Source: Candidatus Binatia bacterium
GTDB taxonomy: Bacteria > Desulfobacterota > Binatia > UBA9968
NCBI GenBank assembly: GCA_041483675.1
Contig: JBGPGE010000003.1
Location: 22,502-86,501 of the forward strand
Reading direction: 5' to 3'
DNA: 64,000 nt
A program made the position numbers and the translations under genes. Positions 1-13,322 of the stretch are shown one piece after another (the first letter of the stretch is position 1; each line of letters opens with the position of its first letter). The notes below the pieces were generated by a model that worked only from the letters and a program-made list of their open reading frames with translations, was not told where the DNA came from and ran no database searches.

Positions 1-686
1 GCCGCATTCCGGCGGCGATCCAAGGCGGCTTTGACGACTCGCACGTAGTCGGTTCGCGCCTGGCGGCGCACAATGCCCTGGTTGGCGGCATGGAGCCTCC
101 GTCGCAGGAGGACATCGGGTAAAAGTATGCTTTTGAGCCCGGTCTGTCGGGCACGCGCATACCAGTCGATGAATTCTCCGACCTGCCACCCGACCTCGAA
201 CGGACCGACGCGCGAGAAGGCCTCGCGCGTGACGAGCATCGTCGAGCAGGAATATCCCGGCATCGCTTCCGGCGGGCAATGGATTTTCTGCTTGGCCGCT
301 TCAGGTAGGTCCGGGCTGTGAAAATGGCGCACGTGTCCCAGGGCGATGTGCAATCCGGGGTCGCGGTCGAAAGCGGCCGTCTGAAGCGCGAGTTTGTCTT
401 CCGTCCACAGGTCGTCCGCATCGAGGAATGCCAGGTAGCGGCCCCGCGCTACCTCGGTGCCGCGATTGCGCGCCGCGCCGATGCCGGCGTGGGTTTGCGA
501 GCAGTAGCGAACGGGCGGGCCGAAGCGTCGAGCCGCTGGGTCGCTGTTATCCGTCGAGCCGTCGTCAACGACGATGATATCGAGCGGCCGATAGGTCTGC
601 CGGAGCGCGCTCTCGATCGCGTCGCCCAGATAACGCTCGCAGTTGTAAACCGGGATGATGACGCTCACCAGGGAATTGTTCTTCAC
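1..686 (-). CDS. Glycosyltransferase family 2 (partial; C-terminus runs off the window start)
   Basis: Reverse complement of ~600-686 translates V-K-N-N-S-L-V-S-V-I-I-P-V-Y-N-C-E-R-Y-L-G-D-A-I-E-S-A-L, the GT2 N-terminal signature. The + strand ORF 318..794 shows the same antisense 'VVNDDD...AVVNRDDDAH' pattern seen opposite the neighbouring GT2 genes. GTG start at 686 overlaps the stop of the upstream gene. No stop occurs before the window edge. Confidence 0.55.
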   Translation of the reverse strand, partial: MKNNSLVSVIIPVYNCERYLGDAIESALRQTYRPLDIIVVDDGSTDNSDPAARRFGPPVRYCSQTHAGIGAARNRGTEVARGRYLAFLDADDLWTEDKLALQTAAFDRDPGLHIALGHVRHFHSPDLPEAAKQKIHCPPEAMPGYSCSTMLVTREAFSRVGPFEVGWQVGEFIDWYARARQTGLKSILLPDVLLRRRLHAANQGIVRRQARTDYVRVVKAALDRRRNA

Positions 687-1393
687 GATCGCCGCTTCCT
701 CGACGGGACTTCGGCCGGTCTCAGTTTGCGCAGGCGTTCGATGGATGATTTTACAGCTCGCAAAAACTCCGAAGCCATAGGCCCGGTCTCGTAAGATTGG
801 TTCGAATCATGAAGGCGCCTGTAGAGGAGAACTTCAGGGAGAACGGTTAATGGCATCCCGGCCTGTTTGGCGCGAAAAAACCAGTCCGTGTCGTTGGCGA
901 CCCGATAACTAGGATCAAAATCACCGACGACTTTGAAAGCCGACTTCCGCGCCGTCAGAGCGCCGACAATCATGGTCGCAGACTCCGTCACCAGGAGGTC
1001 TTTTCTCTTCGGCGGTCGCGTTCCCGGCTCGATAAAATTGCGCATTTTGGCGGAGACATAGGGGATGTCGGGGTGATCAAGGAGATAGCCGATCTGCGCG
1101 CTCAATTTATGAGGCGCCCACAGATCGTCTGCGTCGAGAAAGGCGATAAACTCTCCGGAAGCGGCAGCGAGCCCGGCGTTCTTAGCCTTGCCGTGGCCCT
1201 GGTTGGCTTGATAGATGTAGCGCACCTCTTGATAGGATTTGGCGATCTCGGCAGTCCCGTCGACGGAACCGTCGTCAACGACAATTACCTCCAGAGGGCG
1301 ATAGTCCTGGGCAAAGATGCTGTCGAGCGCGGCCGCCAGGAAGCGCTCGCCGTTGTAAACCGGCACAACCACGCTCACTAGAGGCCCTTTCAT
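683..1393 (-). CDS. Glycosyltransferase family 2
   Basis: N-terminus VSVVVPVYNGERFLAAALDSIFAQDYRPLEVIVVDDGSVDGT and a DADD motif are typical GT2/GT-A features. Confidence 0.85.
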   Translation of the reverse strand: MKGPLVSVVVPVYNGERFLAAALDSIFAQDYRPLEVIVVDDGSVDGTAEIAKSYQEVRYIYQANQGHGKAKNAGLAAASGEFIAFLDADDLWAPHKLSAQIGYLLDHPDIPYVSAKMRNFIEPGTRPPKRKDLLVTESATMIVGALTARKSAFKVVGDFDPSYRVANDTDWFFRAKQAGMPLTVLPEVLLYRRLHDSNQSYETGPMASEFLRAVKSSIERLRKLRPAEVPSRKRRS

Positions 1394-2176
1394 CTATTCG
1401 GTTTCCCCACCGTCTTCGACGCTGCCGGGCAGTTTCATCGCGGACCCTCTTTGGTAATAGGGCAGCCCGGGTAGGGACTCGGCTACGCCGTCATTCCGCT
1501 GCCGGCGGCGATCCAGCGACTGCTTGAACATCCTCATCATATAATGGTCGTTTAACTCTCTTCGATTCGTCAGGTTGTGTTCGTGCCGTCGGTAAAAGAG
1601 GACAACCTCCTGGTTCATCGCCATCGACACGCGCAGCTCGCGGGCGCGCATAAACCAATCCCAGTCGTCCTGGTATCGCAGCGTCTCATCAAAAAGACCG
1701 ACCTTCTCAAACACGGATTTTCTGAAGAGCGCCGCCCCCACATCGAGGCTAATGACCGGCTCCGAGGAGCTTTCATGTTTGGGTCTGCCGTCGATGACGT
1801 CGCTCGACTGTATAATCCGTTTGCGTCCCACGATGATTTCGATGGACGGCTCGTTAACCAGGCGCGCGAGCTGGCGTGCCAGCTTCGTTTCAGGCCACAG
1901 GTCGTCGGCATCCAGGAAGGCGATCACGTCTCCCTTCGCCATTTTCAAGCCGCGGTTGCGGGCCGCCGGCGGGCCGCTGTTTTCTTGGAAAACGTACCGG
2001 ATATTCCGAAAGCCGCCGGCGACTTTAGCGCTGTCGTCGGTCGAGCCGTCGTCGACGACGATGATCTCCAGCGGCTCGTAGGCCTGCCGCAGGATGCTCT
2101 CGATCGCTTCCGCCAGGAAGGCTGCGCCGTTATAGACGGGGATTATCGCGCTGACGGGAACCGGTTTCGTAGGCAT
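1394..2176 (-). CDS. Glycosyltransferase family 2
   Basis: VSAIIPVYNGAAFLAEAIESILRQAYEPLEIIVVDDGSTDDS and LDADD (DXD) motifs. Its stop abuts the previous gene's start. Confidence 0.85.
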   Translation of the reverse strand: MPTKPVPVSAIIPVYNGAAFLAEAIESILRQAYEPLEIIVVDDGSTDDSAKVAGGFRNIRYVFQENSGPPAARNRGLKMAKGDVIAFLDADDLWPETKLARQLARLVNEPSIEIIVGRKRIIQSSDVIDGRPKHESSSEPVISLDVGAALFRKSVFEKVGLFDETLRYQDDWDWFMRARELRVSMAMNQEVVLFYRRHEHNLTNRRELNDHYMMRMFKQSLDRRRQRNDGVAESLPGLPYYQRGSAMKLPGSVEDGGETE

Positions 2177-2179
2177 CGT

Positions 2180-3259
2180 CTAACTCCGAGCCAGCACCCC
2201 GAGGATGATGTCGGGCATTTTGCCCGCGTCGGTTCCGAGTTGCAAGTGATAACAAGGGACCTGTTTCACGACCGCGGCCATCGCCGCCAGCGCCGCATCG
2301 CCCGCGCCCGATAGCTGAAAGAGAGTGCTCGGAGCGAGGGCCTTGAGCGCGGCGGCGGGCGACGCCGGCTTCCAGGCGCTCTCCCGCTTATCCGTGATGC
2401 TCGGCAGGAGGATCGCGCGAACCGGAAAGCCGGACACGATGTTTTCCGGGTAAAGTTTGTGCAGAAAGAAAAGCGCTTTTTCCGAATCAAGACGTTCCGC
2501 ATTGCTAATGGTCGGCGCGAGATGCGGAAATCTCTGTATGCCGTCCGCGTCCAGCTTGGCCGAGTTATAGATGCTGAAGACGTGGGGAGAGGGATCGTGC
2601 GCCAGCAGGCAATAGTCGTCACTGACGTAGCGTAGCTTCGAGCGCAAGCATGCCAGCGCGGTGGTAGACTTTCCTGAGCCGCCTTTGCCGACGATCAGGG
2701 CGCCCCCCGCCGCCGTTCCTACCGCGGCGGCATGAATCAACTGCCGGCCGTGGTCCCGCATCCACCAATGAAAGATGGCTCGCAGCGGCGCGCCGCTTTC
2801 ATAATAGGGCAGCCGGCCGGCGTCGCGGACCCAGAAAAACGCCAGGTCGCGCTCCCGATCGAGAACACTGAGCGCATCGGCCCCGAAATGGAAAGCCGTC
2901 TGAATGCGCCGATCGCTGTAACCGCGCACGTCTCCGCGCGAGATGTAATCGGAAGTGGACCAGGGAGGGGAAGGCATTCGGGTCTGCGTTGAGGCGCTGT
3001 CCCATAGACAGACGGTCAAGACGGGGGCCGAGCTCGGCGGAATCGCCAGGTGTTCTAAGGCCGGCGTGAGGAGCGACAAGAGAGCGGGGCCAGCGAAGCG
3101 CAGACGAATGACGGAGCCGCCGATCCTGTAGAATTGCTCTATCGGCTCTCCGGTTGTCGCCTCGGCGCGCTGAAAGGTTCGGGAGACGGTTTCAAAAAAT
3201 TCCGCAGCGTCGTCCCTGGTGGTCTCGGGAGCGACGGACGGCACTACGGCGCTAGTCAT
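2180..3259 (-). CDS. HprK-related serine kinase (HPr kinase C-terminal-domain-like, P-loop)
   Basis: Walker-A-like GALIVGKGGSGKSTTALACL followed by YVSDDYCLL resembles the HPr kinase/phosphorylase C-terminal domain fold. The ATG at 3259 overlaps the upstream PqqD gene's stop. Confidence 0.7.
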   Translation of the reverse strand: MTSAVVPSVAPETTRDDAAEFFETVSRTFQRAEATTGEPIEQFYRIGGSVIRLRFAGPALLSLLTPALEHLAIPPSSAPVLTVCLWDSASTQTRMPSPPWSTSDYISRGDVRGYSDRRIQTAFHFGADALSVLDRERDLAFFWVRDAGRLPYYESGAPLRAIFHWWMRDHGRQLIHAAAVGTAAGGALIVGKGGSGKSTTALACLRSKLRYVSDDYCLLAHDPSPHVFSIYNSAKLDADGIQRFPHLAPTISNAERLDSEKALFFLHKLYPENIVSGFPVRAILLPSITDKRESAWKPASPAAALKALAPSTLFQLSGAGDAALAAMAAVVKQVPCYHLQLGTDAGKMPDIILGVLARS

Positions 3260-3719
3260 CGTCTTTGGGAGAGGGCGGTTTAGTGTTGGGCCAGCCCGTT
3301 TCGTCGACTTGGTGAATCGGATCGAGCAGGATCAGCTCCTGCATGTCGGTAAATTTCTCCAGGTGAGGTGGCTGGAAAGCGCTTTTTTCGCTTGGGGGCG
3401 CCGCATGCGCGCGCCCTTCCGGGCGGTCTCCGAGCTCCCGCTCTCCGTCGGCGACGATCAGATTTTCCAGCTCCAGCTCGGCTATCAGGCGATGGACGCC
3501 GTCCTCGATCTCCGGGCGGCTACCCTCGTAGCGGCCGGCGATGGCCTCGACAATTTCGCCGAGGGCGGCGCTTGCTCCAATGATCCCCCAGATATCGGCT
3601 CCCGCCCCGTTCAGACTGTAATAGCTGCCCGTATCGAAGTTGATGATCACCACTTCGTCGTCGAACGCTTCATCAATGACTTTAGGCCGGTTGATTCGAA
3701 AACGTTTGGCCGACAGCAT
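3252..3719 (-). CDS. PqqD-family protein (RiPP recognition element-like peptide chaperone) with C-terminal extension
   Basis: Core INRPKVIDEAFDDEVVIINFDTGSYYSLNGAGADIWGII matches the PqqD fold signature. The internal ATG at 3719 is preceded by GGAGGA 8 nt upstream. A ~60 aa acidic/proline-rich tail follows. Confidence 0.7.
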   Translation of the reverse strand: MLSAKRFRINRPKVIDEAFDDEVVIINFDTGSYYSLNGAGADIWGIIGASAALGEIVEAIAGRYEGSRPEIEDGVHRLIAELELENLIVADGERELGDRPEGRAHAAPPSEKSAFQPPHLEKFTDMQELILLDPIHQVDETGWPNTKPPSPKDDD

Positions 3720-3879
3720 GCCCCGTTCCTCCCGTCTTGGCGGAATATATATCGGGGATAGTGGCAGGGCAAGGGCGAAGAGGCGCAAGGGGGAGATTCA
3801 CCAGGAGGCGGTTTCATTGTTGTCGCGGGCGGAGGTGTGGGGAGTCGTTTGCGCAAGCGCCAGGCGCCGGGCGGGCCGG

Positions 3880-5100
3880 TCAGGACATCGCCTCAACGAA
3901 CCGGACCAGGGCGCGAACGTCGTGGTAGTTTCCTTTCCACGAGTGCGCCAGGCCCGTCGCCTTCGGCTTCCCGTCGGCTGTCACCGTGTCGAGCCAGATT
4001 CCCGTCCCGGCGTCGACCTGGTGACGCGCGACGAAGTCCAGCAATTGCCGCAGCGCCTTGATATACGCCCGGTCGCCCGGACGATTTCGCAGTCCATCGG
4101 TCAGGGCCGCGAGCATCTCCGCCTGCACCCACCAAACCTTGTCGGTGTCGCTCGCCGGCCCGTTCCCGTCCCCGCGCTTGAAGACGCCGCCGCGCTCGGA
4201 GTCGGCGCCCCAACGCAGGGTGTGTTCGAGATACGCGTGGAAGTGCGCCCACGCGGGCCGGATCCCCAGGACCTCGACGGCCCGCACCATCAGCCAGGCG
4301 AACTCGACGTTGTGCCCGTAGCTGAGGCCGGCGCTCCGCCGGTCGGTTACCGCCTGCCAGTCCGGCTGGAAATGGAACGCCGACCTGGCCGGTTCCGGCG
4401 GATAAAAGTAGGTGCGATTCAGCTCCAGCGACTCCACCAGCGCGGCGCGCACGGCGCCGTCCCGGCTCTCCGCATACAGCTCGGTGAACGCTTCCATCAA
4501 GTGCACGTGCGTGTTGGCGCTCTTGTACCCAGCGACTTCGACGGTCGCCTTCGGGTCCCGCTTCGCCAGCGGCTTCCAGTCCCGCTCGAAATGCTCGTTC
4601 CAGCCGCGGTTCCTCGCGTCGTGCGCCCGCTCCTGCACCAACCGGAACAACTCCAGCGCGTCACTCAACGCCGACCGCTCTCGGGTAGCCCGGTAATACT
4701 CGACCAACGCGTAGATCACGAAGGCCTGGCCATAGAGCAGCTTGCCCGGGTTCAAAGGCTTGCCGTCCGGCGTGACCGAGAAGAAATAACCGCCGTTGTC
4801 CGGGTCGTGCATCCGCGCGCGCAGAAATTCCACCCCATGCGCCGCAGCCTTCCGGTAATCGCGCCGGTCGTCGCCGTAGCCCTTGCGGTGCGCCAGCGAG
4901 AATCCCCAGACCAGCCGCGCCTGCGTGACCACCTGCTTCTCCACCGGCGTCGTCCGGCCCCGGACCGCGTCGTCCGACAAGGCGTACCCGCCACCAAACG
5001 GATCTACCGTGGTGTCGTGCCAGTAGGGCAGCACCCGCTCTCTCAGGTCCTGCCGGATGAACTCGGCATCCACGCCAAATGATGGCAAGTTATTTTTCAT
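3880..5100 (-). CDS. AGE-superfamily (N-acylglucosamine 2-epimerase / cellobiose 2-epimerase / YihS-like) sugar epimerase-isomerase
   Basis: Alpha6/alpha6-barrel family motifs: LPYWHD, GGGY, LYGQAFVIYALVEYYRAT, VWWVQAEMLAAL. ATG MKNNLPSF at 5100. Confidence 0.7.
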   Translation of the reverse strand: MKNNLPSFGVDAEFIRQDLRERVLPYWHDTTVDPFGGGYALSDDAVRGRTTPVEKQVVTQARLVWGFSLAHRKGYGDDRRDYRKAAAHGVEFLRARMHDPDNGGYFFSVTPDGKPLNPGKLLYGQAFVIYALVEYYRATRERSALSDALELFRLVQERAHDARNRGWNEHFERDWKPLAKRDPKATVEVAGYKSANTHVHLMEAFTELYAESRDGAVRAALVESLELNRTYFYPPEPARSAFHFQPDWQAVTDRRSAGLSYGHNVEFAWLMVRAVEVLGIRPAWAHFHAYLEHTLRWGADSERGGVFKRGDGNGPASDTDKVWWVQAEMLAALTDGLRNRPGDRAYIKALRQLLDFVARHQVDAGTGIWLDTVTADGKPKATGLAHSWKGNYHDVRALVRFVEAMS

Positions 5101-6754: not shown

Positions 6755-7519
6755 ATGTCCACCGTCGGCGTTGTTATTTTCAGCACCGCGAGCATGAAGC
6801 ATCTGGCCGAATGTCTGAAGAGCGTGGCCTGGGCGGATGAGATTGTGCTGCTTCACGCGGGCGCGACGCCGCCGGAGCTGCCAACCGCCGCGGGCCGGCC
6901 GATCGAGTTGAAGACAGCGCCCTCCCTGGCAGAAGCCGCCGCCGCGTGCGATGAGATCGGCAGCGAGTGGGTATTGAGCCTGTGGGGCGATGAGCGCGTG
7001 GAGCCGGAACTCAGGGAGGAACTGCAGGCGTTGCGCCAAGCCGAGTTTAGGGACGGTGGATCGACCTACCGGATTCCGATTCGCTCTTATCTCCTGGGGG
7101 GATGGGCGGTCGGCAGCGTCTCGGGCGCAAGTCCCGCGTTACGGCTTCGTCGAAAGAGCGGGAGCGCGGGGACCGGCTCGCGAATCGATATCGAAGAGGC
7201 AAAAGTCTTGCGGCGCGGTTGGATCGAAGACTATTCCTGCGCGGAGTTGGATCGCGCGGTCGATTACGTCCAGCTTCTCAGCGACTTTTGGGCGCGCCGG
7301 CCGGGGGTCATGAGATCGACGCCCGGCGGGATGCGGGCGGCGCTTGGTTCGCTGCGGGTTTTTTTTCGCATACTCTTCGCCAACGGGATATTTTTTCGCG
7401 GGCTGGCGGGGGTCGCGCTGGCGGCGCTGGCCGGCTATGCGGTGCTGCTGTCGGAGGCGAAATTGTGGGAAGCGAGATACGCGGCGGCGCGGGAAAGCGC
7501 GTCTAAAAGGGCGCCATGA
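6755..7519 (+). CDS. GT2-like protein, paralog of the WaaE-like LPS core glycosyltransferase with degenerate catalytic motifs
   Basis: Collinear with the GT2 at 30428..31216. VVIFSTASMKHLAECLKSVAWADEIVLL aligns to IVVCFNEEANIGRCLESLKWCDEIVVV, and the C-terminal amphipathic/TM tail RILFANGIFFRGLAG aligns to SYVLKRGFLEGFPGF. DSD/DXD are replaced by HAG and WGDE. Confidence 0.6.
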   Translation: MSTVGVVIFSTASMKHLAECLKSVAWADEIVLLHAGATPPELPTAAGRPIELKTAPSLAEAAAACDEIGSEWVLSLWGDERVEPELREELQALRQAEFRDGGSTYRIPIRSYLLGGWAVGSVSGASPALRLRRKSGSAGTGSRIDIEEAKVLRRGWIEDYSCAELDRAVDYVQLLSDFWARRPGVMRSTPGGMRAALGSLRVFFRILFANGIFFRGLAGVALAALAGYAVLLSEAKLWEARYAAARESASKRAP

Positions 7520-12535: not shown

Positions 12536-13261
12536 ATGAAGCTGTCGAAAAGCGGGATGTGGTTCTTTTCTCCCTGCCCGGACCAAGTGGAATTGGACGG
12601 AGTCAGAGTCCCACTCAAGAATTCCCCTTTGGACCCCAAGACGCGGCGGCGGTTAATGCGCGGCTCGTACGAGCTACCCGAGTGCGACTTAGTCCGTACC
12701 TTCATCAAGCCGGGAGAGCAAGTCTTAGAATTGGGCGCATCGGTGGGCATTGTGACCTGTTTTCTCGGCCGCCAAGCCGGCTCCACCGGTCGCTTGGTGT
12801 GCGTCGAGGCGGATGCTCGTCTGAAAGCGCCGTTCGAGACGCAATTGGCCGTGAACGGCGTCCGCGCCGTCTGGGTTAACGCCCTCTGTTGCCCTCTCTG
12901 GCAGGACCAGGTGCCGGCTCATATCGCCAAAATGTCATTTCAACAATCGGAACGAACGCTCTCCGGGCGGGCTGTCGCCGGGCCCGCCGGGGGCGAGGGT
13001 GCTCCGTGGCTAACCGCTCTGGCCATCTGTCGGGAAACCAAATTGGAGCCTACCGCGCTCGTGGTCGACATCGAAGGCAGCGAAGGCGTTTGGAGCGAAT
13101 ATCCACCGAACTTGCCGGACTCGATCGGCCTCGTGATCGCCGAATTTCATCCGGGGTTGTTGGGATCGACGATCACGGGGCAAGCGGTCCAAGCGATCCT
13201 GGAACAGGGATTTGTCGTAGCGGCACTGCGCCAAAACGTCCTTGCGTTTAAACGGAGATAG
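12536..13261 (+). CDS. FkbM-family methyltransferase
   Basis: VLELGASVGIVT (SAM-binding glycine motif) and ALVVDIEGSEGVW...IAEFH are characteristic of the FkbM domain. Confidence 0.7.
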   Translation: MKLSKSGMWFFSPCPDQVELDGVRVPLKNSPLDPKTRRRLMRGSYELPECDLVRTFIKPGEQVLELGASVGIVTCFLGRQAGSTGRLVCVEADARLKAPFETQLAVNGVRAVWVNALCCPLWQDQVPAHIAKMSFQQSERTLSGRAVAGPAGGEGAPWLTALAICRETKLEPTALVVDIEGSEGVWSEYPPNLPDSIGLVIAEFHPGLLGSTITGQAVQAILEQGFVVAALRQNVLAFKRR

Positions 13262-13322
13262 CCGCCGTGCCGGGCGTTAAAGAAACAGACGCCGTCTCAC
13301 CTTCGCACGCTCCACTTGTGGT

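Follow-up and report, generated by a model that had tools for sequence, protein, structure and literature searches.

Gene content and organisation of the cassette

The 64,000-nucleotide (nt) window of contig JBGPGE010000003.1 from a Candidatus Binatia bacterium, to which all coordinates refer unless a locus is named, carries at its left-hand end a cassette in which a PqqD-family gene, a kinase gene and three family 2 glycosyltransferase (GT2) genes are closely packed, all of them on the minus strand. The PqqD-family protein is a recognition element for peptides that are ribosomally synthesised and then modified after translation (RiPPs), and it carries a near-invariant, leader-like peptide at its own C-terminus, which may be the substrate of the enzymes encoded next to it.

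The PqqD-family gene (3252-3719, minus strand; Pfam PF05402, 49 bits) heads the operon and encodes a protein of 155 amino acids (aa) made up of a RiPP recognition element (RRE) domain, a linker and a conserved tail. Its start is most plausibly the ATG at 3719, which has GGGAGG ahead of it, a longer 178-aa version starting from a TTG at 3788 being an over-extension. The kinase gene follows (2180-3259, minus strand) and encodes a peptide-kinase-like protein of 359 aa with the HprK/PEPCK fold. Translational coupling of the two genes is plausible from the sequence because the end of the PqqD gene and the beginning of the kinase gene share 8 nt, within ATGACTAG. GT2a (1394-2176, minus strand, 260 aa; PF00535, 121.6 bits) begins 3 nt past the kinase stop, and GT2b (683-1393, minus strand, 236 aa; PF00535, 125.4 bits) adjoins GT2a with no gap at all. 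GT2c (1-686, minus strand; PF00535, 114 bits) has about 16 of its C-terminal codons beyond the window edge, the complete gene lying at 12574-13308 of an extended stretch of the contig (locus L001). The sixth gene of the operon, just outside the window, encodes an NTP_transf_5 nucleotidyltransferase (L001 13253-14473; PF14907, 144.6 bits). The operon order of PqqD, kinase, three GT2 genes and NTP_transf_5 is confirmed, and so is the picture given in the initial annotation, of a GT2 operon headed by a PqqD-family protein and, coupled to it, a P-loop kinase related to HprK.

The PqqD domain is a B1-type recognition element

Residues 1-92 of the PqqD protein (3444-3719, minus strand) form a winged helix which is identified by its AlphaFold2 (AF2) model, by Foldseek and by profile comparison as an RRE of the lasso-B1 type. 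Residues 1-93 are modelled with a confidence score (pLDDT) above 90, and Foldseek places the domain best on TbiB1 in complex with its leader, with a template modelling (TM) score of 0.9 and 29-31% identity. A profile of the family gives 70.5 bits on TbiB1 (E 1e-18), 48.6 on PbaB1, 27 on TfuB1 and 26.7 on LppB, with the same profile reaching about 15 bits on true PqqD structures. TbiB1 and PbaB1 are thus nearer relatives of the RRE of the cassette than LppB is.

The standing of the protein as a PqqD-family member, which had been put forward from the sequence, is supported by the Pfam PqqD model (49 bits against a cutoff of 23.4). Its best NCBIfam match is lasso_PqqD_Bac with 41.6 bits against a cutoff of 80, and all the lasso_PqqD models stay below their cutoffs. 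TIGR04353 (PqqD_rel_X) gives no match to it at E <= 0.01, and the PqqD of PQQ biosynthesis was rejected as an identity for the protein with 18.9 bits on TIGR03859 against 46. Homologues of the PqqD protein align over 90-100% of its length.

The conserved tail of the PqqD protein

The 63 aa that follow the domain had been noted as an acidic, Pro-rich tail of about 60 aa. This is correct as to composition, but the tail is not of low complexity: in alignments an unconserved linker leads into a segment that is more conserved than any other part of the protein, with a near-invariant leader-like motif inside. The linker (aa 93-110; 3390-3443, minus strand; pLDDT <50) varies freely in sequence but hardly in length, since GxYYS and DPIH lie 96-109 aa apart, with a median of 102 (n=203). 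The leader-like motif F115-x-x-P118-x-L120 (3360-3377, minus strand) comes next, and runs into a nearly invariant distal motif, xK[YF][TS]DMQ[DE]LLLLDPIH[ED]VD[ED]xGWPxxK (aa 121-147; 3279-3359, minus strand). Among 332 unique tails F115 is present in 317, P118 in 327 and one of L, I, V or M at position 120 in 328, whilst D125, D133, P134, H136, G142, W143 and P144 are each invariant in 331-332 of them, giving a consensus of about 30 aa that reads FxxPxLxK[YF][TS]DMQ[DE]LLLLDPIH[ED]VD[ED]xGWP. A sequence search of the PDB with the tail gave chance matches only (nickel superoxide dismutase and mitoribosomal uS7m).

B1-type RREs are known to bind [Y/W]xxPx[L/V/I] in the leaders of lasso peptides and of linear polyphosphorylated peptides (LPPs) (PMC13381572, PMC10368454), and the FxxPxL with which the tail motif starts reproduces this bound motif. 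In the AF2 model residues 111-120 average a pLDDT of 91 and are continued by a strand at 121-123, the linker (94-107) and residues 131-155 being at about 45-50 and the distal part being put at 45-69 overall (50-69 for aa 121-147). This pattern fits crystal complexes of RREs with leaders, in which the residues past xxPxL extend the sheet of the RRE and the leader's C-terminal portion is left free for the enzymes (PMC13381572). The low confidence of the distal motif suggests that this segment may need a partner, and the constraint on linker length fits a geometric constraint such as docking in cis. The motif, the pLDDT and DSSP assignments of the model and the linker length suggest that the FxxPxL may dock in the RRE of its own polypeptide.

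The kinase

The kinase is divided into an N-terminal domain that is specific to the family (aa 1-165; 2765-3259, minus strand) and a catalytic domain (aa 166-359; 2183-2764, minus strand) with H176, the P-loop G191-x2-G194-x-G196-K197-S198 and D214-D215, its Walker A motif reading GKGGSGKST. The AF2 model has a mean pLDDT of 89. H176, G191, G194, G196, K197, S198, D214 and D215 are invariant across 24 kinase homologues, and from H176 to D215 they pair one-to-one and with identical spacing with the validated catalytic motif of BsfK from a lasso cluster of Bradymonas, H148-G163-G166-G168-K169-S170-D186-D187 (PMC10368454). Comparison with the BsfK family by hhalign gives a probability of 96.3% and an E of 1.7e-9 over residues 170-355, with no alignment to BsfK for the N-terminal 165 residues. 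On this sequence evidence the catalytic half of the kinase is homologous to the lasso-peptide kinase BsfK, and the link to lasso-peptide tailoring that had been proposed for the locus gains support from this as well as from the nearness of the RRE to TbiB1 and PbaB1.

The kinase does have a weak P-loop match to HprK models, which could be taken to mean that it is a genuine HPr kinase/phosphorylase that functions in carbon catabolite control. It is hard to see how this could be so, as only 35-45 residues align, the scores are far below cutoff (TIGR00679 20.8 bits against 240, PF07475 19.3 against 33.3), the N-terminal domain superposes on phosphoenolpyruvate carboxykinase (PEPCK) and not on the N-terminal domain of HprK, which is missing, and the neighbouring genes encode glycosyltransferases and are not ptsH or ccpA. 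The chance that the kinase is a bona fide HprK/P is close to negligible. Neither does the protein belong to HprK/P or PEPCK at the level of sequence families, and its gene context is different from theirs.

The initial annotation had also placed the pair near the 'HPr-rel-A' group, and this has to be abandoned: the kinase has 37.9 bits on TIGR04352 against a cutoff of 200, and the PqqD protein has no TIGR04353 match. A further HprK-type model, TIGR04355, gives 36.7 bits, and the precomputed Pfam match of the kinase is PF27840 'ScmC', marked as faint.

The search for a separate substrate gene

What defines a RiPP pathway is a precursor peptide, separate from the recognition element that presents it to the enzymes. 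All-against-all clustering of 17,164 open reading frames (ORFs) of 25 aa or more, taken from 83 loci, found no conserved small ORF, only alternative-frame shadows. A conventional small precursor gene had been suspected in the 160-bp spacer between the PqqD gene and the next gene (3720-3879) or in the ORF at 3647-3856, and short ORFs are present there. When the three small ORFs of 3600-3900 (tblastn) and the spacer itself (blastn) were compared with 96 loci, nothing was kept beyond about 75 nt in the closest relative, which is the metagenome-assembled genome 'Deltaproteobacteria bacterium RIFCSPLOWO2_12_FULL_60_19', at 82% identity. These 75 nt or so adjoin the PqqD start, are 81% identical and have inside them a sigma70-like promoter ahead of the PqqD gene, TTGCCC-17-TATATT (3744-3772, minus strand; one site against 0.1 expected). 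The match of a 69-aa ORF to the same relative covers just 22 residues that overlap the 5' region of PqqD, and a search of the spacer against Rfam gave no match. With ORFs that are conserved neither in this relative nor across the 83 loci, and with a promoter-like site in the spacer, it is very improbable that a precursor gene lies there.

As a rule the tail is found once in a cassette. In 91 of 96 loci a hidden Markov model (HMM) of it picks out a single tail-bearing ORF, and a profile search of 1.84 billion representative proteins gives 2916 matches (cluster representatives), nearly all of them proteins of about 150 aa in which a PqqD domain is followed by the tail, with no family of separate precursors among them. 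Most of the short matches are fragments, such as those at a contig edge (L092) and in a remnant disrupted by an insertion sequence (L094), and the short tail genes of L095 and L096 may be frameshifts of low-coverage contigs. One locus (L093) does have a clean, free-standing tail ORF of 56 aa (773-943), ATGA-coupled to the kinase gene, with stops just upstream, a divergent gene 62 bp off and no PqqD domain upstream on this contig of 1 kb. This stand-alone tail indicates that the tail can function unfused and stays with the kinase. Judged on its conservation and placement, the tail is the best candidate for the substrate.

It might be argued that the true precursor acts in trans and is encoded elsewhere in the genome, with the fused tail being a pseudo-substrate or an autoinhibitory leader mimic until it is displaced. 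The leader-like motif does appear docked in cis in the model, and LppB, the RRE of the LPP system, is insoluble without its leader (PMC13381572), so a mimic in cis could simply stabilise the RRE, and the tail has no invariant hydroxyl to modify. A placeholder, however, would not need the degree of conservation that is seen in the distal 20 residues, the tail profile recovers essentially only PqqD-fused copies or fragments, and L093 has the tail by itself beside the kinase, with no RRE fused to it. A precursor in trans is therefore considered improbable.

A cyanobacterial chromosome (OY970166.1; L052 and L036) carries two kinase/NTP_transf_5 cassettes, only one of which has a PqqD-tail gene within +/-10 kb, so that in this organism a single tail protein may work with both sets of enzymes.

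Distribution and neighbours of the cassette

The kinase has more than 2249 homologues. When each species was represented by a single genome, a scan gave 446 relatives of the kinase, with the counts for the cassette taken from the best 80 loci. The cassette, comprising the PqqD-tail gene, the kinase, NTP_transf_5 and two to seven GT2 genes, is found by tblastn in nearly all of these loci with sufficient flank. The co-occurrence of the kinase/PqqD pair with GT2 genes, raised as a check when the locus was first annotated, extends beyond this genome. The hosts come from about ten phyla and include Cyanobacteria, Chloroflexota, Acidobacteriota, Nitrospirota, Bacteroidota/Ignavibacteriota, Planctomycetota, Bacillota and Proteobacteria (Gammaproteobacteria), with Oscillatoria PCC 10802, Scytonema UTEX 2349, Planktothrix and Anabaena amongst the cultured cyanobacterial carriers. 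The pair is not a product of chance, because full-length homologues (45-59% identity for the kinase, 34-53% for PqqD) recur in at least 80 genomes.

The glycosyltransferases are inherited together with the pair. Across phyla the orthologues of GT2a, GT2b and GT2c have median identities of 44-51% (44% for GT2a and 44% for GT2b), with the kinase at 49%, whereas the three paralogues are only 37-41% identical to each other. As identity between orthologues exceeds that between paralogues, the GT2s are specific to the cassette. In the 82% relative the three are fused into one three-domain protein of 732 aa (L003/L004 11084-13282), which argues that they act jointly on one acceptor. No membrane segment is predicted in any protein of the cassette.

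Other genes come and go. An AGE-family sugar epimerase/isomerase of 406 aa, similar to cellobiose 2-epimerase and mannose isomerase, is encoded just upstream of the cassette at 3880-5100 on the minus strand (PF07221, 145 bits) and is probably an accessory gene; in the Acidobacteriota loci L048, L062, L063, L081 and L083 it has a place within the cassette, after the GT2s and ahead of NTP_transf_5 or the reverse, and it is missing from the locus of the 82% relative. Of 83 related cassettes, 13 have an MsbA-like exporter immediately ahead of NTP_transf_5, the D-N adjacency that LPP and lasso clusters also show, with none in the present operon, and Wzm/Wzt exporters lie inside six cyanobacterial cassettes, a Wzt with the Wzt_C cap-binding domain flanking a few others. 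Further accessory genes encode SDR and SMP-30 proteins, which come in pairs, as well as GT4 enzymes, sulfotransferases and methyltransferases including FkbM.

These neighbours bring up the possibility of a module directed at glycans and not at a peptide. The kinase would then phosphorylate a sugar of a polysaccharide or lipopolysaccharide (LPS) core intermediate, for example as a chain-terminating cap in the manner of WbdD, with NTP_transf_5 and the GT2s decorating this glycan and the PqqD-tail protein being a mere scaffold or regulator that docks the enzymes through its invariant tail. Such a role would suit the position of the cassette amid LPS core and lipid A genes in both the window and the 82% relative, the Wzm/Wzt genes and the Wzt_C-bearing Wzt just mentioned, the frequency of sulfotransferases and FkbM methyltransferases, which are typical glycan-capping enzymes, and the want of a strictly conserved hydroxyl in the tail. 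The flanks, however, are wholly different from genome to genome, with LPS core genes here, the dcw cluster in L010 and restriction-modification genes in L006, and the tail and the GT2 set are kept across phyla, which would not be expected of species-specific surface polysaccharides. Every characterised relative in the clade of the kinase phosphorylates peptides with the help of an RRE, RREs bind peptides, and the cassette, besides having no protein with a membrane segment, has no conserved priming phosphoglycosyltransferase, flippase or polymerase. On balance a glycan-directed module is regarded as unlikely.

Comparison with known systems

Of the known systems, the LPP cluster found in Bacillota (Popov et al., Nat Commun 2026, PMC13381572) comes closest to the cassette. 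LPP clusters sit in capsule loci rich in glycosyltransferases, are reported to be restricted to Bacillota, and encode a kinase, LppK, that phosphorylates a Ser just past the leader (PMC13381572). Both systems have a core of B1-like RRE, HprK-like kinase and NTP transferase without a lasso cyclase, and both are located amid glycosyltransferase-rich surface-polysaccharide loci. An MsbA-like exporter adjoins the NTP transferase in 13 of the related cassettes, though not in the present operon. The peptides are also alike in starting with [Y/F]xxPx[V/L], followed by a conserved stretch for enzyme recognition. The differences are no less apparent. Whilst LPP clusters have a separate LppA of 35-200 aa, the cassette has its peptide joined on to the RRE at the C-terminal end, and the peptide is much more conserved, its motif differing from the YxxPxVLxHQxIxFETxxS of LppA and being without the conserved Ser. 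The cassette has no SpI-like (SipW-type) leader peptidase, to judge by the annotated neighbourhoods and by the gene clusters conserved in the 83 loci, its dedicated GT2s are core components, and it occurs in Gram-negative phyla and cyanobacteria.

The tailoring enzymes of lasso clusters are similar too. In clusters of the paeninodin and pseudomycoidin type an HprK-like kinase phosphorylates the precursor and PsmN puts one or two hexoses on the phosphate (PMC8498205, PMC6993621), and the RRE BsfB1 strongly speeds up BsfK (PMC10368454). With these systems (PadeK of paeninodin, PsmK/PsmN of pseudomycoidin, BsfB1/BsfK/BsfN) the cassette shares a B1-type RRE, a PF14907-type nucleotidyltransferase and a homologous kinase catalytic domain with the identical catalytic motif. 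Unlike them it is without cyclase C, a B2 protease or a separate precursor, its acceptor would not be a C-terminal Ser or the Ser3 of a core peptide, and the N-terminal domain of its kinase cannot be aligned with theirs. That a lasso cyclase and B2 protease are missing had been remarked on from the present locus, and it remains true on a wider view, as neither was found within the 10 kb annotated on each side at five loci, amongst the genes conserved in the 83 loci or amongst the window ORFs scanned with Pfam (about 11.9-37.2 kb).

HPr-rel-A (TIGR04352/TIGR04353) and SynChlorMet (ScmC/ScmD) likewise combine a P-loop protein resembling HprK with a PqqD-like one, but the cassette scores far below cutoff on their models (37.9 of 200 on TIGR04352, none on TIGR04353, 23.6 of 100 on TIGR04248 for ScmD), and its operon has neither of the two radical S-adenosylmethionine (SAM)/SPASM enzymes of SynChlorMet, nor any other radical SAM gene. 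No description of a natural fusion of an RRE to its own leader-like peptide, or of a cassette such as this, was found in the searchable literature. The cassette is best filed as an LPP- or lasso-tailoring-like chemistry with an RRE-fused, near-invariant peptide and dedicated GT2s, which has not been described so far.

A proposed mechanism and its significance

The cassette may be read as an RRE to which its own precursor-like peptide is fused, this peptide being phosphorylated first and glycosylated afterwards, a reading that we consider to be evenly balanced between right and wrong. The RRE and the peptide that it recognises would be one polypeptide, and the cassette would work like a tailoring module of phosphorylated lasso peptides or LPPs. 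The tether, constrained in its length, would let FxxPxL dock in the groove of the RRE as a leader peptide does, leaving the invariant DMQxLLLLDPIHxVDxxGWP exposed to the enzymes. A kinase of the BsfK/LppK type could then bind the exposed segment and phosphorylate the tail, for which Thr/Ser124 is the sole candidate hydroxyl. By analogy with PsmN in pseudomycoidin, NTP_transf_5 would add to the phosphate, and the three soluble GT2 paralogues, going by analogy and by their co-inheritance, would extend a short conserved oligosaccharide. The product is envisaged as a phospho-linked glycoconjugate on the 155-aa protein or a fragment of it, made in the cytoplasm and tied to envelope-glycan loci, with some relatives possibly adding an MsbA-like exporter to the pathway.

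A number of observations weigh against this mechanism. No hydroxyl residue is strictly conserved in the 332 tails, since position 124 is Ser or Thr in 93% of them, with N, A, D or V in the remainder, and position 141 is Ser or Thr in just 64%, and it is Asp133 and Pro134 that occupy the offset of the phospho-Ser in BsfA and LppA. A C-terminal Ser is present in 15 of 265 proteins, a rarity which rules out an acceptor of the lasso type at that position, and 32% are without any Ser or Thr after GWP. The tail HMM scores -0.6 bits on the BsfA precursor, with 121 of 2000 shuffles equal or better, thus the case for homology between the tail and lasso precursors is confined to the short motif. There is no conserved peptidase that would release a peptide, and the Wzm/Wzt exporters of some loci normally move lipid-linked glycans. 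Of the NTP transferases in the model systems, LppN was inactive in a heterologous host (PMC13381572).

A more specific version of the proposal, and one that is possible rather than probable, is that the 155-aa protein is a self-recognising carrier on which the kinase, the nucleotidyltransferase and the three glycosyltransferases build a phosphate-linked oligosaccharide, in what would be a protein-primed, RiPP-derived pathway found in about ten phyla. A bolder idea comes from the invariant DPIH (residues 133-136; 3309-3320, minus strand), which resembles self-cleaving or ester-forming Asp-Pro motifs such as the GDPH of von Willebrand factor D (vWD) domains and the DPHFII of inter-alpha-trypsin inhibitor heavy chains (ITIH), which become ester-linked to chondroitin sulfate. 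On this idea Asp133-Pro134-x-His136 might be self-cleaving or ester-forming, and could couple the peptide to a glycan or pass a glycan to the envelope.

The fusion of an RRE to its own peptide, if true, would be a new solution to the presentation of a substrate, and LPP-like chemistry would reach beyond Bacillota to Gram-negative phyla, with a physical link to loci for LPS and envelope glycans. Besides being large and widespread, the cassette is present in cultured cyanobacteria that could be used for experiments. It may also help to explain what NTP_transf_5 and the surrounding glycosyltransferases make, a question left open in the work on pseudomycoidin and LPPs of 2019-2026. Because the glycosyltransferases are conserved as core components and the acceptor is near-invariant, the final product should be alike in many organisms and so easier to identify.

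The adjoining envelope-glycan locus

Beyond the cassette and on the other strand, 5300-33300 of the window (plus strand) is occupied by one long envelope-glycan locus. Its genes include those for two GT9 heptosyltransferases, three kinases of the Kdo/WaaP family, a PMT_2/ArnT-like protein, a bifunctional ATP-sulfurylase/adenosine phosphosulfate (APS) kinase with a sulfotransferase, and GT4 and GT2 enzymes. A CMP-sugar cytidylyltransferase is present as well, accompanied by a NeuB-cupin fusion, and so are a B12-radical SAM enzyme and a PfkB/HldE-like kinase. Such a gene content suggests a sulfated LPS core or O-glycan with nonulosonic acid. Between a heptosyltransferase gene and a Kdo-family kinase gene there is an ORF of 254 aa (6755-7519, plus strand) with no Pfam match, and a gene is also called at its position in the 82% relative.

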